DNA of 64,000 bases from an uncultured Thermoanaerobaculia bacterium (GCA_964609835.1 CAZSTH010000001.1:34087-98086), one strand, 5' to 3'; positions 50,515-62,550 are shown, counted from the stretch's first letter. Numbers and translations are program-made. Notes: generated by a model not told the origin, from the letters alone.

Positions 50515-53500
50515 ATGGGACCCCCCGAAGGTACCGAACCCACTTTCGAAGATCTCCGGGAACGGCCGCCGGCCGAAGCTGCCGGCGTCATCGCGCGCCA
50601 GCTGGTGGACGAAGACGCCCCACAGCGCCGGGACAGCCGACTGGTCGACCTCCTGGACGACCGCCGAGCCGGCGACCAGATCCTGGAGCACCTGCCGTTG
50701 GAGGCGCTGGAAACCCTGGCTCGGCGGTGTGCGGGGCGGTTGGATCCGTCGAGTCCGGAGCCGTCGAGCAACGCCGTCGCATGGCAGCTGCTGGACGTCC
50801 TCCGAAGGCGGGAGGTGCTGGTCCGGATCGCCGCGGACGGGACCGTCGACAGCTGGGCGGAGCTGCTGCTCGAGCTGGTGGAACGGTCGCACTTCACCTT
50901 CGCGCGCCTCTTCCAGCAGCGTGCCGCGGGCTACGGCGAGCGGCCCCTCTTCGAGCTTCCCGCCAACGGCGGCAGCCGCAAGGTCAGCTGGCGGCAAGCC
51001 TCGGGACGGGTCGACCTGATCGCCCGATCTCTGCTCGCGCTCACCGCAGCCACCGGACAGCAGCCGGTGGGCATCCTGTCCCGGAACCGGCTCGACATGG
51101 CGCTCGTCGATCTCGCCTGCCTGACCAGCGGCATCGTCAATGTCGTGGTACCGGCCAATGCGACCGAGACCGACGTCGCATTCATCCTCGAACACGCCGA
51201 TGTCGGTGCCGTCGTGGTCTCCGACCGCGAGCAGGTCCAGAAGATCCTCAACGTTCGTGATCGGCTGCCACGGCTGGGACCGTTGGTGGCCCTCGACCCC
51301 GCGGCGGCCGGGCGTCACGGCGCGATCGCCTTCGAGCAGCTGATGGCAAGATCGTCGGAGGTGGCACCGGAGCAGCTCGAGGAGCGCCGGAGCGCGCAGC
51401 GCGTCGACGACCTGGCGACCGTCATGTACACCTCGGGAACCACCGGCACCCCAAAGGGCATCTGCTTCACCCAGCGCAACATCGTGTCCAAGCGCTTCGC
51501 GCGGGCGCTCGCGCTGCCGGAGATCGGCGAGGGCGACCGCTTCCTCTGTTATCTACCGCTCTTCCACACCTTCGGCCGATTCCTCGAGATGACCGGCTGC
51601 GTGTTCTGGGGCGCCACCTACTGCTTCGCAGACGATCCGAGTGTCGAGACCCTGACGCGGCAGATGCGTGGCCTGGGCACCACGGTCTTCATCAGCGTGC
51701 CGATGAAGTGGATGCAGCTCTACGATCTCGTGCGGCAGAGCGTGGATGTGGTGGCGGCAACCGACGACGAGATCCGGACCGCCCTGCGCGAGGTGACCGG
51801 ACCCGCACTGCGTTGGGGCCTGTCCGCCGCCGGCTACCTCGACCCTGAGGTCTTCCACTTCTTCCAGCGCAACGGTGTCGAGCTGATGAGCGGCTTCGGC
51901 ATGACCGAAGCCACCGGCGGCATCACCATGACCCCGCCCGGGCACTACAAGGACGACTCGCTCGGGCCCGCGCTTCCCGGCGTCGAAACCGACCTCGCGG
52001 CCGACGGGGAGATGGTGATCCGCGGCCCGTATGTGATGCGCGGCTACCTCGACCCTCCGGACGGAGTGCCGTCCTTCGACGACCGCGGCTGGTTCCATAC
52101 CGGCGACCTCATGGAGCGCGACGAGGACGGCTACTACCGGATCGTCGACCGCAAAAAGGAGATCTACAAGAACATCCACGGCGAGACCATCGCCCCGCAG
52201 AAGATCGAGAACCTCTTCCGGGACTTCGACTCGGTGGGCAGGGTCTTCCTCGTCGGCGACCACCGTCCCTACAACACGGCCCTCGTCTATCCCAACCCTG
52301 AGTTCGAGGAGATCGACCTGGCGTCGCTTTCGCCCAATGATCTGAAGGACCACTTCAGGTCGTTGGTGGTGAGCGCCAACTCCTTCCTGGCGCCGTACGA
52401 GCGGATCATCGACTTCGCCATCATCGACCGCGACTTCGACGCCGACCGCGGCGAACTCACGCCCAAGGGCACCTACCGGCGCAAGAACATCGAGCGCGCC
52501 TTTTCCGACCGCATCAGCCTCCTCTACCGGCGCCGCACGCTGACGGTCGGCGGCGCGAACGTGGTGGTGCCCAACTGGTTCTTCCAGGCGCTGGGCATGA
52601 CGGCCCAGGATCTCATCGTCGACGGTGACGAGCTTCGGCTGCGGTCCGAGGGCACCACGCTGGCCATCCGCGCCGAGGGCGAGGGCGCGGTCAGGGTCGG
52701 CTCGGTGGTCTACACCCTGCAGCAGAAGGCCGTCGACCTCGGTCATCTCCTCTCGATTCCCCGCCTGTGGCTCGGCAACGAGGCGCTGGTTGGCTTCGCA
52801 CCGCTCGCCCCCGAGCAGCGCAACCGCCGCCGGCGGCGGCGGGTGTCCGCAGAATGGCTGCGGCGCACCAGTCCCTATCGCGCGAGAACCGCCGACGGTG
52901 ACGCCATCTCCGCGCTGATGAGGCGCCAGGAGGCGGAGCTCCGCGACGTCCACCAGGCCGCGCTCCTGCTGGCGAGCGACGACGAGGGGGTGGCGGTGCA
53001 GGCGGTCAGGATCCTTGACCACCTCCTTCACATCGACGACAGCGGGCTCAACGATTTCACGCTCAGGATCCTGCGGCGAGCGGCGGACTCACCGCTTGGC
53101 CGCGTCCGCCAGCGTGCCTTCCAGGTCCTGGCGTCGGTGGAGCTCGACTCCCGGTACCGGAACACACTGGCTCGCTTCTTCGACAACGGCCACAACGTCC
53201 TCGATGCCGAGACCATCTCGGTGCTCGTCGACCGCGACCTCACCTCCCACCAGATCGAATGCTTCATCGCCGAGGCCGAGTCGCGGTGGATCCGCGGCGC
53301 CGGCGGCGGCGCCGACTACGACGTCGTCCGCGCCATGTGTGCCTTTCTCGCCCGTTACGGTGCGGCACATCCGAGCCAGTATCGCCGCCTCCGAGGCTTC
53401 TTCACGCGATCGATGATGATCGCCTCCGACCAAACCGCTCGGGACATGGCGGCGGCCGGCAAGCGCGAGCTCGCCGACGGCTTCCGGCTGTGGCTCGGCG

Positions 53501-55269
53501 CCCCGTCCCGGGTCGCGGTCGACCCCGAGACCGACCTCGAGTACCGCTGGGAAGACGTCGTCGAGTTCTCTGACGAGGTGGACACCGAAACCAGGGACCG
53601 GATCCTCGACGCCTTGCGGACCACGCCGGTGTTGCGCGAGGCTTCGTTCCTGATCGGCACCGCTGCGCGACCGGTTCGGCTCGAGGACATCCTCCCTGGC
53701 GGCGTCTGGGTCCGCCTCCTCGGCACCTCTCACGGCAAGTCGGTCTATCGAGTCGCCGTGCGAACCCGCGACCGGGAGCAGTTCGACCTCGCCCTCAACC
53801 TCAACCACGACCTCTCTCCCGACGACGTTCAGGAGGAGATCAACTGGCTGATCGTCTGCAGCGAAAGCAACGGGCGCGGCCCCTTGGTGGAGGTCTTCGG
53901 CGGGTGGTGGCACGAACATCATCTGTGGACCGAGGAGTTCATTCCCGGAGAGACGCTCGACAGGGCGCTGGCGCGGCTCGCGCGCAAGCATGCCGAACAG
54001 CCGGAGCGGATGACCCTGTGGTGGCCCTTCGCAGCCTGGGCGGCCGTCAGCGCCTACGTCGACTTCTGGAACCGCACCGGGCGTCGCCTGGTGGTGGCGG
54101 ATCCCTCGCCTGCGAACGTCATTGTCCCGCTGCACGACTACCACACCGGAGCGCGGCTGGTGTCGATCTCCTCGCGCGCTCCCTTCGACTCCCTTCCGAC
54201 CATGCTGCGGAGCTTCCAACACCATTTCATCGCGCCGGCCGAGGCGGCTCACCCGGAGCTTCGGGGCCTCGCCGGGTGGCAGGTCCTGTTCTCGGCGGTG
54301 CTCGAGGTGATCGGCGTCGAGGGCGGCGCCGCCGAGCTGCGGGCGGTCCTCGAAGCCTCAACCAGCGAGGATGCCGAGATGGCAGCCAGCCTCGAGGAGT
54401 TCCTGAGCGCGGTCGGAAAGCGCGGCTTCCTGCCGCGGAGGCTCTTCTTCGCTGCCAAGCGATACCACCGCTGGGAGGAGCTCAACCCCGACGCCACCTT
54501 GAGCGCTCGCGCGAGGACCCTCCAGGAGATCTACCAGACCTACGACCTCGGCGAGCTGGACGCAGTTTTACCGGAGGCGAGAGCGCGCTTCTTCCGCGAG
54601 ACCGTGCTGCAGAACGCCTGCGGCGAGCTGGTGGCCGGGCTCGAGGAGCTGATCAGCCGGCTCCGCTGTGCCGAGCTCGCTCGGGACGAGATGAGCGCCG
54701 CGGTTGCCGACCTGCGCGCCCACCTCTCGCTCGCGCCGGAGGAGGACTACTTCCTCGCCCGCCTCTCCTATCCCCATCTCCGCCCGGACGACGAGGCCGA
54801 GTACGTCGAGGCGGCAGCCGGGGGCATCCAGCAGAGCGAGATGGTGGTCACGCACGAGGACTCCGAAGGCATGCGCTATCAGATCCGCCACGCCCTCAGC
54901 GCCAAGGAGGTGGGGCGCCTCCACCGGCTGTTCCTGACCGCCAAGCTGCCAGTCCAGTTCCGGCCGGAGCATCGTTTTCTGGTCGCCATCAGCGATCGCG
55001 GTAACCTCATCGGCGGGCTGTTTTACGAGCTCGAACCCGAGGCTCAAACCGCCCACATGGACAAGATCGTGGTCGCCGACGCGTTCCACGGGCGGGGCAT
55101 CGCTGCCAATTTGCTGGAGGAGCTCAAGCACCGGCTTCGAACCGGCGGGTGCGGCGCGCTAACCACGGGCTTCTTCCGCCCTCAGTTCTTCTACCGGATG
55201 GGTTTTAGCGTCGAGCGCCGCTACGCCGGGCTGTACCTCTCGCTGGTGGACGGCGGCGGGGAGGGGTGA
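50515..55269 (+). CDS. 1584-aa multidomain protein: acyl-adenylate-forming ligase (FACL-like) / helical and kinase-like middle region / C-terminal GNAT acyltransferase
   Basis: AMP-binding motifs MYTSGTTGTPKG, GFGMTEATG, GWFHTGDL and DRKKEIYK in the first ~690 aa. The middle contains EEFIPGETLD...VVADPSPANVIVP, resembling ABC1/UbiB-type kinases. The end has VADAFHGRGIAANLLEELK...MGF (GNAT). Confidence 0.85.
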   Translation: MGPPEGTEPTFEDLRERPPAEAAGVIARQLVDEDAPQRRDSRLVDLLDDRRAGDQILEHLPLEALETLARRCAGRLDPSSPEPSSNAVAWQLLDVLRRREVLVRIAADGTVDSWAELLLELVERSHFTFARLFQQRAAGYGERPLFELPANGGSRKVSWRQASGRVDLIARSLLALTAATGQQPVGILSRNRLDMALVDLACLTSGIVNVVVPANATETDVAFILEHADVGAVVVSDREQVQKILNVRDRLPRLGPLVALDPAAAGRHGAIAFEQLMARSSEVAPEQLEERRSAQRVDDLATVMYTSGTTGTPKGICFTQRNIVSKRFARALALPEIGEGDRFLCYLPLFHTFGRFLEMTGCVFWGATYCFADDPSVETLTRQMRGLGTTVFISVPMKWMQLYDLVRQSVDVVAATDDEIRTALREVTGPALRWGLSAAGYLDPEVFHFFQRNGVELMSGFGMTEATGGITMTPPGHYKDDSLGPALPGVETDLAADGEMVIRGPYVMRGYLDPPDGVPSFDDRGWFHTGDLMERDEDGYYRIVDRKKEIYKNIHGETIAPQKIENLFRDFDSVGRVFLVGDHRPYNTALVYPNPEFEEIDLASLSPNDLKDHFRSLVVSANSFLAPYERIIDFAIIDRDFDADRGELTPKGTYRRKNIERAFSDRISLLYRRRTLTVGGANVVVPNWFFQALGMTAQDLIVDGDELRLRSEGTTLAIRAEGEGAVRVGSVVYTLQQKAVDLGHLLSIPRLWLGNEALVGFAPLAPEQRNRRRRRRVSAEWLRRTSPYRARTADGDAISALMRRQEAELRDVHQAALLLASDDEGVAVQAVRILDHLLHIDDSGLNDFTLRILRRAADSPLGRVRQRAFQVLASVELDSRYRNTLARFFDNGHNVLDAETISVLVDRDLTSHQIECFIAEAESRWIRGAGGGADYDVVRAMCAFLARYGAAHPSQYRRLRGFFTRSMMIASDQTARDMAAAGKRELADGFRLWLGAPSRVAVDPETDLEYRWEDVVEFSDEVDTETRDRILDALRTTPVLREASFLIGTAARPVRLEDILPGGVWVRLLGTSHGKSVYRVAVRTRDREQFDLALNLNHDLSPDDVQEEINWLIVCSESNGRGPLVEVFGGWWHEHHLWTEEFIPGETLDRALARLARKHAEQPERMTLWWPFAAWAAVSAYVDFWNRTGRRLVVADPSPANVIVPLHDYHTGARLVSISSRAPFDSLPTMLRSFQHHFIAPAEAAHPELRGLAGWQVLFSAVLEVIGVEGGAAELRAVLEASTSEDAEMAASLEEFLSAVGKRGFLPRRLFFAAKRYHRWEELNPDATLSARARTLQEIYQTYDLGELDAVLPEARARFFRETVLQNACGELVAGLEELISRLRCAELARDEMSAAVADLRAHLSLAPEEDYFLARLSYPHLRPDDEAEYVEAAAGGIQQSEMVVTHEDSEGMRYQIRHALSAKEVGRLHRLFLTAKLPVQFRPEHRFLVAISDRGNLIGGLFYELEPEAQTAHMDKIVVADAFHGRGIAANLLEELKHRLRTGGCGALTTGFFRPQFFYRMGFSVERRYAGLYLSLVDGGGEG

Positions 55270-56144
55270 TGTCCGGAATCACGATCCGACGTGCGGGAAG
55301 GCTCTTCGATAGCCTCGAGAGCCGGTGGCTGAAGATGGCGACCCAGCGCCGGATCGCGTCGTCGCTGGTGGTGGCCTTCGTGATCGCCCTGCTGCTGGTG
55401 GAGCTGCGGCGTCTCGGCCCGCTCCCGGCGACGATGGAGCGCTGGCTGCCGAGCAACCACTTCGAGGCGATCCTGGTGCCCTTCACTCTGCTGCTGCTCG
55501 CGGAGGTCGTGTCGCTGGTCTTCGCGCTCGCCCAGTCGGTGGCGATGGCTGTCGGCAAGCAGCTGGAGATCATGTCGCTGATTCTGATCCGTCAGTCATT
55601 CAAGGAGCTCACCTTTCTCCCCGAGCCGATCGTGTGGGATCTCTCCTCGGCGGAGGTCACCCGCCGAGTGCTCTACATTCTCTCGGACTCCGCCGGCGCC
55701 CTCGTGATCTTCGGGCTGCTGGTGGTCTACTTCAGGCTCCAGGCCCACCAACCCATCTCGCAGGACCCCGACGAGCGCTCGAGCTTCGTAGGCGCCAAGA
55801 AGCTGATCGCGCTGGTGTTGCTTGCCAGCATCGTCGTCATCGGCGGCGAGGTTGTGTGGGCGTGGGTGGTCGGGGCCGGAGCTCCCTCGTTCTTCGAGAT
55901 CTTCTACACCGTGCTGATCTTCGCCGACGTCTTCATCGTCCTCACCTCGCTGCGCTACAGCGTCGCCTACGCCGTCGTCTTCCGCTACTTCGGCTTCGCG
56001 GTGGCGACCGTCCTGATCCGCCTCGCGCTCACCGCACCGCGCATCGTCGACGCCGGCCTCGGGGTGGCGGCAACCCTGTTCGCGATCGCGCTCACCTGGG
56101 TCTACAACAAGACCATGGCGGCGGTCGCGGAAGCCACCACCTGA
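55266..56144 (+). CDS. integral membrane protein of unknown function, translationally coupled to the giant ligase/GNAT gene
   Basis: The start (GTG 55266 or ATG 55269) overlaps stop TGA 55267..55269. About 6 TM segments. No family recognised. Confidence 0.7.
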   Translation: MMSGITIRRAGRLFDSLESRWLKMATQRRIASSLVVAFVIALLLVELRRLGPLPATMERWLPSNHFEAILVPFTLLLLAEVVSLVFALAQSVAMAVGKQLEIMSLILIRQSFKELTFLPEPIVWDLSSAEVTRRVLYILSDSAGALVIFGLLVVYFRLQAHQPISQDPDERSSFVGAKKLIALVLLASIVVIGGEVVWAWVVGAGAPSFFEIFYTVLIFADVFIVLTSLRYSVAYAVVFRYFGFAVATVLIRLALTAPRIVDAGLGVAATLFAIALTWVYNKTMAAVAEATT

Positions 56145-56224: not shown

Positions 56225-59200
56225 CTACCGATAACCGAACAGCATGGTGTAGACGATCAGCGCGATCAGGGTCAGGCCGATGCCGAGCGCCGTGAAGCCG
56301 ATGATCCTGGCGGCGCGCGCCAGTCCGGGATGGGCGGGCCCGGCGATCCGCTCCTCGAGCTGCTCGGGAGTCGCCCGGCCGATGAACTCGTCATACTCGG
56401 CAGGCTTGTCGTGCTTGAGCTCCTCGACGCCGACCCGACCGGTGAAGATCACCGGGTCCATCGGGAACTTGTCCGGGCGGAAGTGCGTGTTGAAGAAGTG
56501 GATGGTGAAGATGAAGGCGACCGCCAGCAGGGCCTCGTCGGAGTGGATGATGGTGGCGACGTTGATCGCCCAACCCGGCAAAACGATGGTGAAGAGCTCG
56601 GGGAACCACAGCACGAGGCCGGTGGAACCGATCACGAAAACGCCCCAGAAGACCGCAAAGTAGTCGAACTTCTCCCAGTAGGTGTAGCGCCCGTAGACCG
56701 GTCGCGGACCGCGGCCGAAGAACCAGCGAATCGACTCGAAGACCTGACGGATGTCGGTGAAGTTGAACATCAACGAGTTTTTGTCGAAGATGAAACCGAA
56801 CAGGCCCTTGCCCGAGCCGCGGAAGCCGTGCCACAGCTGGCGCAGGTGGTAGAGGAAGAGCACCGACAGGACGACGGCGCCGATGCGGTGCAGCAGCGCC
56901 ATGGTGTCGAAGCCCCCGAACAGCTGCGAAACGACCATCGCCCAGCCCATGTACGAGAACTTGAGCGCCATGCCGGTCAGCGCGAGCGTGAAGAAGCTGA
57001 CGATCATCACGAAGTGCATGATGCGCTGGGTGAGCGAGAAGCGGCGGTAGAAGCGGGTCTCTGCGGCATTCTTGTGGGCGATCCACTGCTCCTTCGTTCG
57101 CCACAGCCGGAACAGCCACAACATCGTGTGGAGGATGGCGAAGCTCAAGGTCCCCACCAGCAGCGTGGTCATGAAGATGAACGTCCAGTACAGGAACGGG
57201 TACTTGTCCTTGTCGTGGTGGGTCGCGTGGGTCAGGTAGCCCGCGAACTGGCGATGGGCCTTGGGGTGGCAGGTGGCGCAGGTCGCGACCACGTTCCAGT
57301 GGCTGAGGGTGGACTCGGGATCGTCCGACGGCAGGATGTTGTGGGTGCCGTGGCAGTCGTAGCACTTGGCCGCACCCTCGGAGCCGAGTTGCGTGATCTT
57401 GCCGTGATGGGTGTCGAAGAAGGTCTCGGCGAAGTCCTCGTGGCATTGACCGCACTGGTTCATCATCATGAAGCGGAAGCCCTGAGCATCGACCCGCGTG
57501 ATCTCGTGCGACATGTGGCAGCTCTCGCAGGTGGGTAGCTGCTCGGTCGTCGTGACGTTGTCAGGCCAGTGGATCGAGGCACGAAACTCCTCCTCGATCC
57601 CCTTGTGGCAGGCGCCGCATGTGGAGGTGATGTTGGCGGGGTTGACCGACGAGCCGGGATCGTCCTGCGGCAGCGCGGTGTGCGCAGTGTGGCAATCGAC
57701 GCAGCTCGCCGACACCACCAGGCCGCTGCCGATCAGTCCCCGTCCGTGCGTGCTTTCGAGATAGGTCTCGAAGATGTCGCGGTCGTCGCCAAGCCGCTCG
57801 GCCGCCGCCTTTCCGGCAGCGTGGCAGGCCCCGCACAATTCGGGGACGTTGCGGGCGTAGGTCGGCGAGGTCGGCAGCCGGTAGCCGGTCGTCGCGTGGG
57901 AGTCGCCGTGGCAGCTCTCGCAGGTCGGCGCGTCGGCGTCGCCGGCCGCCGCGAGCTGGCCGTGGCGGCTGAGGTCGTGCTCCTGCACCTGCTGCGCGTG
58001 GCAGATCGCGCAGTCCACCGGTGATTCGATGGTTGCGCACGCGCGCTCCGGGTGGCCGGGCGCCACCTCGGTGTGGCATTGGGCGCAGGCGACGGCGGCA
58101 TGCTCCGACAAGCCCAGGACCTCCTGGTCGATGAAGAGCGACACCGTGGTGCCGTCGCGAATCGTTTCCAGCTCCGGGTTCCCGTGGCACTCGAGGCAGC
58201 GCCGCGAGCTCGCCTCCCGCGGCGAGATCGGACGGCGACGGATCTTGTGCGGCTGGTGGCACTCGACGCACGACGGGATCTTGTGGGGCTCCTCCTCCCA
58301 CAGCCGTCCCTCGACGACCTTGACGTGGACCTCCTCGATCCTCGCGTGGCACTGCATGCACATCCCGGCCACGTTCTCGCGGGCGATCGACGACGCCGGG
58401 TTGTTGTGGTCGAGAATGTCGTGGGCGGTGTGGCACGAGGTGCAGACCGCGGTCACCGTCAGACCCTTCTCGAACAACGCCTCGCCGTGGACCGACATCG
58501 AGAAGTTCTCGAGGATCCGGTCCTGCGGGATCTCGTGCTGCAGCGACACCTCGGTGCCCTCGCGATGGCAGCGGCCGCACAGCAGCGGCACGTTGACCAC
58601 GTTGGTGGGTGCCTGCGGATCCGTGTGGGGCAGGATCGCGTGGTGGTCGTGGCAGATGATGCAGTTGGGGGCGACCGGATCGCCTTTGACCGCCGCGCGA
58701 CCGTGCAGCGACGCGCGGTTCTGCGCCGCCACCTCGGCGTGGCACTCTCCGCAGGCCTGGATCTGTGCCAGCGGTTCCACCGGCGCCACGACCTCGTGGC
58801 CGCTGTGGCAGTCGACACAGGTGGCCGCGGAGCGGCCGCTGACGACCTTCGCGTGGGGGCTGCGATCCACCTGTTGGAGAGCCCGGGCGTGACAGCGCGC
58901 GCACAGCGAGTCGACCCGGGAACCGTGGGTCCGCGCCTCGGTGTCCGAGGATGACCGCACGTCGTGGGTGCCGTGGCAGCTCGTGCACGCGGCGGCCGGC
59001 GAGGTCGGGTCCCGCGCCCAGCTCCGGTGCGGACCCGCGGCCAGCTCCGCCGCCATGTCGTCGTGGCACATGGCGCAATCCACCGCTTCCAGCTCCTCGC
59101 CGTGCGGCAGCTCCGCTCCGTCGAGCTCCATGTGGCAGTCGATGCACGCGAAGTCGGCGTGCACCGACGCGGCATAGCCGGCCGGATGAACGAAAACGGA

Positions 59201-59377
59201 GACCTCGGCGCCACCACGAAAGCCGGTCAGGTCGGGGTCTTCGTGGCACATCAAGCAGTCGTCGTTCTCCTGCGCGCGGACTGGGGAGACCCATCCGATG
59301 AGCACGATGCACGTCAACACCACGAACGCGCGGACCGCAGCCCCGTGGGGATTGATGCTGGCGCCTCGACCGATCAT
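56225..59377 (-). CDS. 23-haem c-type cytochrome fused to a C-terminal dihaem-type cytochrome b membrane domain (CbcL-like architecture)
   Basis: I counted 23 CxxCH motifs after a signal peptide (…WVSPVRA/QEND). The C-terminus has 5-6 TM segments with an FdnI/HydC-like pattern (RFSLTQRIMHF..LTG, LLHRIG, IIHSDEA, FTIHFFNTHF). Start set to ATG 59377, preceded by GGAGGAGGCGAGGAG; the ORF-track start is 59431. Confidence 0.9.
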   Translation of the reverse strand: MIGRGASINPHGAAVRAFVVLTCIVLIGWVSPVRAQENDDCLMCHEDPDLTGFRGGAEVSVFVHPAGYAASVHADFACIDCHMELDGAELPHGEELEAVDCAMCHDDMAAELAAGPHRSWARDPTSPAAACTSCHGTHDVRSSSDTEARTHGSRVDSLCARCHARALQQVDRSPHAKVVSGRSAATCVDCHSGHEVVAPVEPLAQIQACGECHAEVAAQNRASLHGRAAVKGDPVAPNCIICHDHHAILPHTDPQAPTNVVNVPLLCGRCHREGTEVSLQHEIPQDRILENFSMSVHGEALFEKGLTVTAVCTSCHTAHDILDHNNPASSIARENVAGMCMQCHARIEEVHVKVVEGRLWEEEPHKIPSCVECHQPHKIRRRPISPREASSRRCLECHGNPELETIRDGTTVSLFIDQEVLGLSEHAAVACAQCHTEVAPGHPERACATIESPVDCAICHAQQVQEHDLSRHGQLAAAGDADAPTCESCHGDSHATTGYRLPTSPTYARNVPELCGACHAAGKAAAERLGDDRDIFETYLESTHGRGLIGSGLVVSASCVDCHTAHTALPQDDPGSSVNPANITSTCGACHKGIEEEFRASIHWPDNVTTTEQLPTCESCHMSHEITRVDAQGFRFMMMNQCGQCHEDFAETFFDTHHGKITQLGSEGAAKCYDCHGTHNILPSDDPESTLSHWNVVATCATCHPKAHRQFAGYLTHATHHDKDKYPFLYWTFIFMTTLLVGTLSFAILHTMLWLFRLWRTKEQWIAHKNAAETRFYRRFSLTQRIMHFVMIVSFFTLALTGMALKFSYMGWAMVVSQLFGGFDTMALLHRIGAVVLSVLFLYHLRQLWHGFRGSGKGLFGFIFDKNSLMFNFTDIRQVFESIRWFFGRGPRPVYGRYTYWEKFDYFAVFWGVFVIGSTGLVLWFPELFTIVLPGWAINVATIIHSDEALLAVAFIFTIHFFNTHFRPDKFPMDPVIFTGRVGVEELKHDKPAEYDEFIGRATPEQLEERIAGPAHPGLARAARIIGFTALGIGLTLIALIVYTMLFGYR

Positions 59378-59418
59378 CTCCTCGCCTCCTCCGCGCCCGA
59401 TCCCTCGAGCTCCCGCCG

Positions 59419-59447
59419 AATGTATCTTCATGTGACGAATTATTCAA
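59419..59447 (-). promoter_or_regulatory. putative sigma-70-type promoter TTGAAT-17-TACATT for the 23-haem gene
   Basis: On the minus strand the -35 is at 59447..59442 and the -10 at 59424..59419, in the most AT-rich stretch of the divergent intergenic region. Confidence 0.35.
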
Positions 59448-59660
59448 GTTTGTCGTTTGCGGCGAATTGAGATAAAGACTCTTTTCAATAACCGGTTCCT
59501 GAGCCTCCGGGACGCTTTCGCGATCAGGGACCGTGTCGGGCGGCGTTCGATCGCCGATCCTGGACCCTCGCCACCGGTTCCACAGGGCGGTCTGGTCCAC
59601 GCGGCACCGGTGATGGTATTCTCCGGTCACGGTCGAGCAAATGTGCAAGGGAGAGCCGTC

Positions 59661-61398: not shown

Positions 61399-62550
61399 AT
61401 GGAGTGGTTGGAGCAGAACATCGATGCCTACCGCATCGTGTCCGAAATTCTGGGTCAGCTGCGGATCGCCGTCCGCGAGGGCCTGGAGCGGGCGTACGCC
61501 GATGACTGGTTCCGTGAGGGCCTTCCGCAGGAAGTCTTCGACCGGCTGGTTGCCGCCAAGGAGCGTGAAAAGTCGATCGACTGGTACGAGGGCCAGTACC
61601 AGCAGATCATGGACTACGCGACCTTTCCAGACCTGATCCAGATCCTCGAGAAGAACTCCGACCTGTTTCCCGCGTTCGTCGGCCTCGCCCCCAGCCCGGC
61701 CCTCCTCCACGCCCGCTTCCTCGAGCTTGACGTCATGCGCGCCAAGCTCGGGCGCGCCCGCCCCATCAGCGAGACCGAGCTGTCGTTCCTCGGAACCTTC
61801 CACCTCCGTTTCCGCAAGGCCGTTGCGGAGGCCAATGCGGAAGGTCCCGACGATGCGCCCCCGAAGGTCCACGAGGTGCCCCGCTCCGAATCCCCGGGCG
61901 ACGACGAGAAGGTGCCGCCGACGTCCGCGAAACAGAAGGGCCCTGGCCGCGACGAGCCGACCCGGCCGCAACGGCCGGCGTCCATTTCGGCTCCTGACGA
62001 GGCGGATGAGAAAAAGAAGAAAAGGAAGAAGAAGGCCGCCTCCGAGGAGGACGACATTCCGACCAAGGAGATCTCGTCTTCGGACGCGGACCGCACGGCG
62101 GCGGGCGAGGACCTGGACGACGGCGACGACGACCGCGACGCTGAAGACCAGGAGGCCACCGGCTCCGATCTCGAGGAAGAGGCCTCTCCTCGCGAGGCGC
62201 CCGCGACCGTCACCACCAAGATCAGCGACGCGCTCGAAGACAACAACCACGTCGAGATCCTCCGCCATCTCTACCGGGAGGTGACCCGGATCGCCGAGGG
62301 GGTGTGGAGCAACGAGACGACACCGGCGCCGCTGATCTGGGAGCAGGTCACGGCCAGCGACTGGTACGAGCGCAACTTCTCACGTCTCGGGCTGCAGCCG
62401 TTGTCCGCGTTCTACGACGTAGCGGCCAAGATCGAGGCCAGAACCCGCGATGGCATCGACAAGAAACAACTCCAGGAGCTCCTCAAGGACTCCAACTTCG
62501 CGCGCACGCTGCTCCAGCTCAGGGACATGTTCCAGGCCAACGACATCTGA
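61399..62550 (+). CDS. Swt1-like-HEPN-related protein with central highly charged disordered region
   Basis: The N-terminal LRIAVREGLERAYADDWFREGLPQEVFDRL...MDYATFPDLIQILEKNSDLF...LDVMRAKLGRARPISETE resembles the Swt1-like HEPN pattern, but RAKLGR replaces RNxxAH. The middle contains EKKKKRKKKAASEEDD within D/E-rich tracts. Confidence 0.65.
   Translation: MEWLEQNIDAYRIVSEILGQLRIAVREGLERAYADDWFREGLPQEVFDRLVAAKEREKSIDWYEGQYQQIMDYATFPDLIQILEKNSDLFPAFVGLAPSPALLHARFLELDVMRAKLGRARPISETELSFLGTFHLRFRKAVAEANAEGPDDAPPKVHEVPRSESPGDDEKVPPTSAKQKGPGRDEPTRPQRPASISAPDEADEKKKKRKKKAASEEDDIPTKEISSSDADRTAAGEDLDDGDDDRDAEDQEATGSDLEEEASPREAPATVTTKISDALEDNNHVEILRHLYREVTRIAEGVWSNETTPAPLIWEQVTASDWYERNFSRLGLQPLSAFYDVAAKIEARTRDGIDKKQLQELLKDSNFARTLLQLRDMFQANDI

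Follow-up and report, generated by a model that had tools for sequence, protein, structure and literature searches.

How do electrons leave the quinone pool in bacteria that respire minerals or other extracellular acceptors? Outside Geobacter and Shewanella, this exit is the least understood step of such respiration. The question is raised here by one long gene in a 64,000-nucleotide stretch of DNA from an uncultured Thermoanaerobaculia bacterium (GCA_964609835.1, CAZSTH010000001.1:34087-98086; the whole stretch is called the window below). A first-pass annotation had described the product of this gene as a single polypeptide that joins 23 c-type haems to a dihaem-type cytochrome b membrane domain, in the manner of Geobacter CbcL. 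What would such a protein do? We propose, with a probability of roughly 0.6, that the gene encodes an inner-membrane quinol:periplasm oxidoreductase, which would oxidise menaquinol at the cytoplasmic side and deliver the electrons to periplasmic or extracellular acceptors. Residues are numbered from the longest open reading frame (ORF; ATG 59431 is residue 1, and the start at 59377 is Met19); features and their window positions are collected in Table 1.

We found exactly 23 CxxCH motifs, at residues 59-722, behind a Sec-type N-terminus, which bears out the count and the signal peptide of the first-pass annotation. None of the variants CxxxCH, CxxxxCH and CxxCK occurs in the 1050-amino-acid (aa) protein, and 46 of its 48 cysteines sit in CxxCH motifs. 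The Pfam models Cytochrome_C7, Cytochrom_c3_2 and Paired_CXXCH_1 all matched well over their cut-offs. Among 77 aligned sequences, 58 retain every one of the 23 motif columns; in those 58, 26 histidines of the periplasmic part that lie outside the motifs are at least 90% conserved. The conserved distal histidines can therefore be predicted to suffice for 23 low-spin haems, with bis-His ligation possible throughout. Because there are enough of them and no catalytic-type motif, we read the haem domain as a probable wire and not an enzyme.

Does the haem domain resemble a wire of known structure? An AlphaFold2 model of residues 393-745 (haems 13-23) had a predicted local distance difference test score (pLDDT) of 87.5 and a predicted template modelling score (pTM) of 0.79. 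Foldseek returned only weak matches of this model to hydroxylamine-oxidoreductase-type proteins (TM-score 0.2-0.35), and neither it nor the whole model found a close solved haem-domain template or an MtrA match. Residues 575-707 weakly match residues 22-155 of NrfB (2ozy_A, E 0.0055), the Pfam NrfB-like model is sub-threshold (E 0.0027), and TIGR03508, the DmsE/MtrA decahaem family, gave 87.1 bits against a cut-off of 192.2, so that the protein is not a member. Likeness to the linear wires NrfB and MtrA/DmsE consists only of such sub-threshold sequence matches and of bis-His haems; the difference is that every score of the window protein falls under the curated cut-offs.

For the membrane domain, the first-pass annotation had given five to six transmembrane (TM) segments, a final C-terminal one and the histidine pattern of FdnI/HydC. 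By hydropathy there are five TM segments; the AlphaFold2 model has six helices (approximately residues 741-778, 800-824, 841-873, 918-942, 953-983 and 1035-1066), the extra one being TM4 (953-983). Ni_hydr_CYTB (PF01292), a model that the first-pass annotation had listed for a check together with Cytochrom_c3_2 and Paired_CXXCH_1, exceeded its cut-off as those two did (30.5 bits against 30.1, residues 797-975). In a phmmer alignment, H806, H848, H963 and H978 pair with the haem ligands H18, H57, H155 and H169 of FdnI (1kqf_C). All four are invariant in the 77 aligned family members, and remain so across 38 b-domains, among them those of 9-17-haem paralogues at 27-35% identity; the pattern proposed at first pass is thus complete. 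Foldseek likewise placed FdnI 1kqf_C as the best Protein Data Bank match of the whole model (target-normalised TM-score 0.79), and this match covers the b-domain alone. The menaquinone-site residues N110, G112 and Q113 of FdnI align with GRYTYWEKFDY (914-924), the most conserved stretch of the protein, which lies at the cytoplasmic end of TM3 near the cytoplasm-side haem. From the charge distribution and the periplasmic haem domain, we predict that TM0 runs from outside to inside, that the quinone site is cytoplasmic and that TM5 returns to the periplasm. Ligands thus appear to be present for one periplasm-side and one cytoplasm-side haem b.

Is the b-domain then an FdnI? TIGR01583 (FdnI, formate dehydrogenase gamma) scored 34.7 bits against a cut-off of 115.85, and we saw no formate dehydrogenase genes in the window. 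With FdnI (Escherichia coli formate dehydrogenase-N, 1KQF chain C) and HydC/HyaC the domain shares a four-helix bundle, and with FdnI the ligand pattern (one His in helix 1, one in helix 2, two in helix 4) and a cytoplasm-side menaquinone site, where the conserved loop of the window protein falls. However, the window protein has two extra helices, TM0 and TM5, and two extra conserved histidines, His768 and His862. FdnI docks an Fe-S subunit, whereas the window protein is fused to its own electron partner, and neither formate dehydrogenase nor hydrogenase genes lie near the window gene. We conclude that the b-domain has the apparent fold and ligands of FdnI yet is not an FdnI. The two extra histidines both lie at cytoplasmic TM ends (His768 in TM0; His862 in TM2, 14 residues past H848) and are near-invariant even in the 27-35%-identical paralogues. 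They may serve a third haem, a quinone path or a proton path.

The combination of 23 CX2CH motifs after a Sec signal, six TM helices and a HydC/FdnI-like b-domain with its ligand histidines leads us to assign the protein to the CbcL/MtrH/MtoC family, as what appears to be its longest known form. Zhong & Shi (2018; PMC6295460) described homologues of 416-1034 aa with 3-23 CX2CH motifs and mostly six TM helices from 15 phyla, at 28.6% identity or more within the set. Since their list runs up to 23 motifs and includes GBD91784.1 (1034 aa, 23 motifs, six TM; Table S2), the long form was already catalogued, and the novelty that the first-pass annotation implied was overstated: the architecture has been on record since 2018, and it is the long form that is uncharacterised. 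The motif-to-motif spacings of GBD91784.1 equal those of the window protein within one residue. The 2018 set also holds 19-haem members from Ignavibacteria, Bacteroidetes, Omnitrophica, Gemmatimonadetes and others.

Our comparison with CbcL, MtoC and MtrH rests on the published motif and TM layout and on GBD91784.1, motif for motif and TM for TM. CbcL (GSU0274) has 619 aa, with 9 CX2CH motifs followed by six HydC/FdnI-type TM helices, the last at 589-611 (PMC6295460, Table S2). The two proteins are alike in their signal peptide, N-terminal periplasmic CX2CH domain, six TM helices with a dihaem b core, and last C-terminal helix. They differ in size, as the first-pass annotation had noticed (23 haems in 1050 aa against 9 in 619), in the last motif spacings before the membrane (...30,25,30,28 in the window protein, ...29,28,43,28 in CbcL), and in that the window protein has an invariant mid-chain Cys instead of a distal His. 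CbcBA of G. sulfurreducens similarly pairs a multihaem c subunit with a dihaem FdnI-like b subunit; there, the four-helix b subunit CbcB stands apart from CbcA, which carries 7 haems and ends in a TM helix of its own, whereas the window protein is one 23-haem chain. A literature search pairing CbcL with Thermoanaerobaculia returned no papers; ImcH/CbcL homologues are mentioned in passing in PMC13013709.

Relatives were found in at least 578 species-representative genomes, many from sediments and soils. The best 80 of these loci carry 14-23 motifs each, with lower counts in shortened or split loci. They bear names from Acidobacteriota, Thermoanaerobaculia, Holophagae, Bryobacterales, Gemmatimonadota, Woeseiaceae, Bacteroidota and Ignavibacteria, and further from Zixibacteria, KSB1, Calditrichota, Planctomycetota and Latescibacterota, among others. 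Closest among the matches listed (79%) are metagenome-assembled genomes (MAGs) of Ca. Sulfomarinibacteraceae/Thermoanaerobaculales, in which synteny also matches. A broken frame, which the first-pass annotation had named as a possible refutation, was not seen: the ORF (56225..59431, minus strand) is uninterrupted, and among the 120 best homologues, 83 likewise carry 23 motifs in about 1050 aa. In three loci the 19-haem and b parts are separate adjacent ORFs (L062 11127-14048 and L073 9926-12868, both Melioribacter-like; L072 9854-12847, Acidobacteriota), which could be either a natural split version or frameshifts; the split genes of L062 and L073 resemble the CbcBA arrangement. Neighbourhood counts below were taken over 84 related loci, in which a shorter paralogue, with 11 haems and cytochrome b, often stands in tandem with the long gene.

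How would the proposed oxidoreductase work? Menaquinol would be oxidised at the cytoplasm-side site, with its protons staying in the cytoplasm. The electrons would cross the membrane through the two b haems, aided by the membrane potential, and would then follow the c haems outward, entering at the membrane-side haem 23 and leaving from haem 1, the farthest, for periplasmic or outer-membrane acceptors. Solved haem wires measure roughly 0.8-1 nm per haem. If extended, the 23-haem chain would be about 18-23 nm long and could reach the outer membrane with no need of soluble shuttles; that it spans the periplasm could be true and is a hypothesis, not a result. Energy conservation would be given up for the ability to reduce low-potential acceptors, as proposed for Geobacter CbcL. 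CbcL is thought to oxidise menaquinol dissipatively on the N side, and ImcH electroneutrally on the P side (bioRxiv 10.1101/2023.05.03.539133).

An ImcH-type gene lies next to the long gene in the window. The divergent neighbour, the sole other cytochrome c gene there, has three TM helices by hydropathy (ORF residues 89-118, 119-147 and 174-203), a CX3CH motif (CGETCH) directly after TM3 and then five CX2CH motifs. Three TM helices, CX3CH beside TM3 and CX2CH motifs after it define the ImcH family (PMC6295460, PMC4251993). Over 476 aa, the neighbour is 39% identical (E 6e-123) to L053 8486-9988 of Zixibacteria RBG-1, whose length and motif positions are those of EQB63199.1 from the same organism (Table S3, PMC6295460). 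E127, K173, Q179 and Y188 form the quinol site and haem-1 pocket of Geobacter ImcH (bioRxiv 10.1101/2023.05.03.539133); they correspond to E137, K183, Q189 and Y198 of the neighbour, at equal offsets from the haem-1 His, and the pocket K and Q are kept in all 23 ImcH-like neighbours of related loci. All of the family features are present, and we conclude that the neighbour is a predicted ImcH-family quinol oxidase.

Compared with ImcH itself (GSU3259), the neighbour shares the three N-terminal TM helices, the atypical first CX3CH beside the membrane and the NapC/NirT-like region. Its motif spacing is 25/49/108/117/21, against 24/49/106/117/20 in GSU3259 and 24/49/108/117/20 in the Koribacter homologue (Table S3). 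GSU3259 has seven haem motifs, whereas the neighbour has six and lacks the C-terminal one, like the homologues from Anaeromyxobacter, Solibacter and Zixibacteria (Table S3, PMC6295460). The imcH gene of G. sulfurreducens is monocistronic (PMC4251993), whereas the imcH-like gene of the window adjoins a cbcL-like gene.

Is this adjacency peculiar to the window? When all ORFs of the related loci were clustered without supervision, an ImcH-like protein proved the commonest true neighbour. Its gene lies within 10 kb of the long gene in 24 of the 84 loci (19 of the 59 that have full flanks, at least 2.5 kb on both sides) and is directly adjacent, with a gap under 400 bp, in 20. The adjacency takes three arrangements (divergent, upstream and downstream) in at least 10 named lineages, running from Acidobacteriota to Bacteroidota, Zixibacteria, Calditrichota and Phycisphaerae. 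Zhong & Shi noted that both families co-occur in genomes and did not note adjacency (PMC6295460); locus tags in their Tables S2 and S3 (e.g. A2X96_02390 and 02395) suggest it in some Desulfuromonadales MAGs. The ImcH-type neighbour is the most informative context of the long CbcL-type gene, and its recurrence is a lead new here.

The conserved adjacency suggests that an ImcH-type oxidase would work together with the long CbcL-type protein or as an alternative to it, offering an electroneutral P-side route. It is plausible that the long haem domain serves as a common outlet for both oxidases, a hypothesis that the adjacency raises. A futile quinone cycle from ImcH to the b haems was considered and rejected on energetic grounds.

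How did so long a chain arise? Comparing the protein with itself by BLASTP gave no internal match; the repeats were resolved by profile-profile alignment with hhalign on family sub-alignments (Table 1). The four inserted haems, motifs 6-9, reproduce the last four of units 1a and 2a (hhalign 99.7-99.8%). The aligned 19-haem relatives, which are the commoner form, lack this insertion and 21-haem relatives have half of it, so that they miss four or two motifs precisely at the insertion spot; the published 11-haem relatives have the motif spacing of one single unit. We conclude that the c-domain is, as its profiles indicate, modular, with an 8-haem unit in two copies and an insertion of 4 haems, a finding new here. 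Because the gaps fall at the insertion spot and the 11-haem forms have single-unit spacing, the series looks like one in which 11 haems became 19 through duplication of the 8-haem unit, and 19 then became 21 and 23 through membrane-distal insertion.

One residue stands out in the second repeat. Cys465 is invariant in 77 of 77 aligned sequences and aligns by hhalign with His110, an invariant residue of repeat unit 1. In the repeat-2 segment, 73 of 73 long relatives have Cys, and His is also there in only 23; in repeat 1 and in single-unit paralogues the equivalent segment has His and no Cys. Since Cys465 is without a partner Cys in the mature protein, the most economical reading is that it may be an axial ligand, giving one mid-chain haem with His/Cys ligation. 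As a haem ligand it would recall what we take to be comparable His/Cys haems in the sulfur-cycle enzymes TsdA, SoxXA and DsrJ. Elsewhere in the chain, Met656 and Met657, just before motif 21, are 97-98% conserved among 23-haem sequences, and one or the other could be an alternative axial ligand.

Might all of these parts form one machine? It would have a single fixed haem wire with two quinol entries, one periplasmic and energy conserving through the ImcH-like protein, the other cytoplasmic and driven by the membrane potential through the b haems; a His/Cys gate or sensor would sit mid-chain, and the wire, if extended, would reach the outer membrane. We regard this as a speculative and rather improbable picture. 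If it were true, the cell could trade yield for driving force, or the reverse, while the path downstream stayed the same, and the His-to-Cys swap in repeat 2 would yield a very low-potential His/Cys haem as a gate or sensing point.

We took 59377 as the start of the gene because of the Shine-Dalgarno sequence GGAGGAGG about 8 nt 5' of this ATG, the lengths of the homologues (1044-1054 aa), and the position of ATG 59431 within the spacer of a promoter-like element kept in six related loci; the longer start at 59431 was rejected on these grounds. The element, CTTGAAT-N17-TACATT, is the sole conserved block of the divergent intergenic region in an alignment of six Thermoanaerobaculales loci; about 35 nt farther upstream, a short TCTCAA is conserved as well. 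The signal peptide has the h-region AFVVLTCIVLIGWV and is probably cleaved after VRA, a site read straight from the sequence. A lipoprotein signal was rejected, the 'VLTC' context being unlike a lipobox and Cys41 not an invariant column, and we read the signal as Sec/SPase I. The GC content at third codon positions (GC3) is 0.91 across the whole ORF.

Table 1. Features of the cytochrome locus, with their positions in the window and the evidence for each.
Feature	Position	Strand	Evidence
Long CbcL-type gene, predicted 1050-aa fused multihaem cytochrome c/dihaem cytochrome b	56225..59377	-	Intact ORF, Shine-Dalgarno sequence, full-length homologues (55-82% identity)
Sec signal peptide, residues 19-54	59270..59377	-	Hydrophobic stretch 28-54; AlphaFold2 helix 28-47, low pLDDT
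Repeat unit 1a, haem motifs 1-5	58889..59269	-	hhalign against unit 2a: 99.9%, E 3e-37, full length
Four-haem insertion, haem motifs 6-9	58565..58888	-	hhalign; motif presence/absence; spacing against published 19-haem proteins
Repeat unit 1b, haem motifs 10-12	58256..58564	-	hhalign against unit 2b: 99.9%, E 2e-32, full length
Repeat unit 2a, haem motifs 13-17	57821..58255	-	hhalign against unit 1a
Codon of invariant unpaired Cys465, candidate axial ligand of a His/Cys haem	58037..58039	-	Invariance; hhalign to His110
Repeat unit 2b, haem motifs 18-20	57515..57820	-	hhalign against unit 1b
Membrane-proximal haem motifs 21-23 and linker to TM0	57197..57514	-	
Codons of Met656 and Met657	57461..57466	-	Conservation
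TM0, predicted periplasm-to-cytoplasm helix with near-invariant His768	57110..57196	-	Hydropathy; AlphaFold2 helix 741-778
Codon of His768 (TM0)	57128..57130	-	Conservation
FdnI/HydC-type four-helix dihaem cytochrome b core, residues 797-985	56477..57043	-	Pfam PF01292, phmmer, Foldseek, invariance
Codon of His862 (TM2)	56846..56848	-	Conservation
Sixth, C-terminal TM helix, residues 1040-1067	56231..56314	-	Hydropathy, AlphaFold2; CbcL-like
Promoter-like element CTTGAAT-N17-TACATT	59419..59448	-	Conserved in six Thermoanaerobaculales loci
Divergent intergenic region common to both cytochrome genes, 283 bp	59378..59660	.	
Predicted ImcH-family inner-membrane cytochrome, 485 aa	59661..61118	+	Pfam Cytochrom_NNT 37.9 bits; motifs, TM helices, homology
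1584-aa AMP-binding ligase/GNAT protein	50515..55269	+	
292-aa polytopic membrane protein	55266..56144	+	
383-aa acidic protein	61399..62550	+	

The two cytochrome genes are flanked by unrelated genes: a giant AMP-ligase/GNAT gene, a lytic transglycosylase, peptidases and RecG. The giant protein has an N-terminal AMP-binding ligase and a C-terminal GNAT acetyltransferase, with about 800 aa unassigned between them. The 292-aa membrane protein that follows it has no Pfam match and overlaps its stop by 4 nt; for these reasons it was rejected as a cytochrome partner and assigned to the AMP-ligase/GNAT operon. Synteny with the cytochrome gene is kept in related MAGs, by both members of this pair in L001 and by the ligase in L004 as well. 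On the other side, a protein with a long acidic Lys-rich low-complexity middle and no Pfam or NCBIfam match holds the same position in L001 and L004. The first-pass annotation had reported no outer-membrane conduit gene in the window; we too saw no cytochrome-rich conduit cluster, though the window as a whole was not specifically screened for beta-barrel genes.

Elsewhere in the family the gene does stand among candidate conduit genes. In the cultured isolate Maribellus sp. YY47 (L084 4768-18344), a 19-haem orthologue lies in an apparent operon that starts with a Crp-family regulator, a 6-haem cytochrome, a DUF5777 beta-barrel, a 7-haem cytochrome and a cytochrome b (Ni_hydr_CYTB); the 19-haem fusion is then followed by an ImcH-like gene, a c554-like tetrahaem gene and a fused ResB/CcsA cytochrome maturation gene. 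In six Gemmatimonadota/Akkermansiaceae MAG loci (L021, L022, L026-L029), a 488-aa protein with a signal peptide, a porin-like composition and no Pfam match directly follows the fusion; a 12- or 16-haem cytochrome comes after it, and 8-, 10- and 11-haem genes come before the fusion. Such an arrangement resembles a candidate porin-cytochrome conduit. Rieske and PetB-type cytochrome b genes occur within 10 kb of the long gene in 13 loci (L011, L017, L022, L027, L029, L036, L040, L048, L053, L064, L066, L077 and L078), and therefore several different quinol-oxidising modules are clustered there. No reductase gene recurs as a neighbour in the 84 loci. In Ca. Sulfomarinibacter genomes, Flieder et al. 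(PMC8528874) found cytochrome/beta-barrel clusters, elsewhere in the genome and syntenic with those of the Fe/Mn-reducing Thermoanaerobaculum aquaticum, and proposed metal-oxide respiration; the same genomes encode an octahaem tetrathionate reductase and other periplasmic reductases.

What weighs against menaquinol oxidation with outward electron flow? The direction of flow is not readable from sequence: family members occur both in organisms that reduce Fe(III) and in organisms that oxidise Fe(II), and no feature tells the two sets apart (PMC6295460). The Pfam match of the b-domain clears its cut-off by just 0.4 bits, and the NCBIfam FdnI-gamma and DmsE decahaem models score far under theirs. 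Identity to the b-domains of 9-17-haem paralogues is only 27-35%, and CbcL was compared by its published layout. Neither Cys465, invariant at a distal-ligand position, nor His768 and His862 are accounted for by a simple CbcL model. Housekeeping genes surround the window pair, and neither an outer-membrane conduit nor a partner reductase is in sight; two-thirds of the related loci with full flanks are without an ImcH-like gene nearby.

Could the chain instead run inward, in the manner of FdnI and of the proposal for MtoC? The donor would then be periplasmic or extracellular, whether Fe(II), a reduced mineral, a partner cell or a periplasmic dehydrogenase; its electrons would enter the haem chain, pass inward through the b haems and reduce menaquinone on the cytoplasmic side, which would make a proton-motive redox loop. 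The b-domain is indeed built like FdnI, which runs inward; homologues in Fe(II) oxidisers carry no directional signature (PMC6295460), and the Rieske/cytochrome b genes of 13 loci would fit. However, ImcH, the conserved partner, has so far been linked to quinol oxidation alone; for the lineage, metal-oxide respiration is predicted or known and iron oxidation is not (PMC8528874); and the window holds no donor-side enzyme. We find inward flow distinctly unlikely. Perhaps, then, electrons leave the quinone pool without any extracellular pathway? The protein would be a general periplasmic redox hub with the role of CymA or NrfH, feeding reductases for soluble acceptors (tetrathionate, nitrite, sulfur compounds or N2O) encoded elsewhere in the genome, and its length would serve docking of several partners or electron storage, not distance. 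The 25 redox centres would buffer electrons, no conduit gene adjoins the long gene in Thermoanaerobaculales, and Cys465, if a haem ligand, presumably recalls sulfur-cycle His/Cys haems. The periplasmic reductases of Ca. Sulfomarinibacter would provide outlets (PMC8528874). Against this, other named lineages cluster the gene with beta-barrel or porin-like proteins and large extracytoplasmic cytochromes, and no reductase is a recurrent neighbour. Such a hub is an unlikely account, if one to be taken seriously.

A more basic doubt would be that the fusion is an artefact, whether a mis-assembly, a frameshift joining c and b genes or a decaying pseudogene, and the separate c and b ORFs of L062, L073 and L072 might be cited for it. 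The homologue set refutes this in practice: there are 120 full-length homologues at 54-82% identity, with the 58 that keep all 23 motifs among the 77 aligned; GC3 over the whole ORF is 0.91, and synteny around the gene is kept in independent assemblies. We consider the chance of an artefact negligible.

What would a quinol:periplasm oxidoreductase of this kind mean for the family? Beyond the 2018 catalogue, the leads added here are the ImcH pairing, the modular expansion and the invariant Cys. The adjacency of imcH-like genes offers a candidate for the ImcH partner that the discoverers of ImcH called needed (PMC4251993). The forms with 11, 19, 21 and 23 haems are a natural series to test whether wire length matters, Cys465 makes a specific prediction testable by spectroscopy, and Maribellus sp. 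YY47 is a possible experimental model. Since relatives are present in at least 578 species-level genomes, many of them from sediments and soils, the long CbcL-type family may be a major route by which electrons leave the quinone pool.

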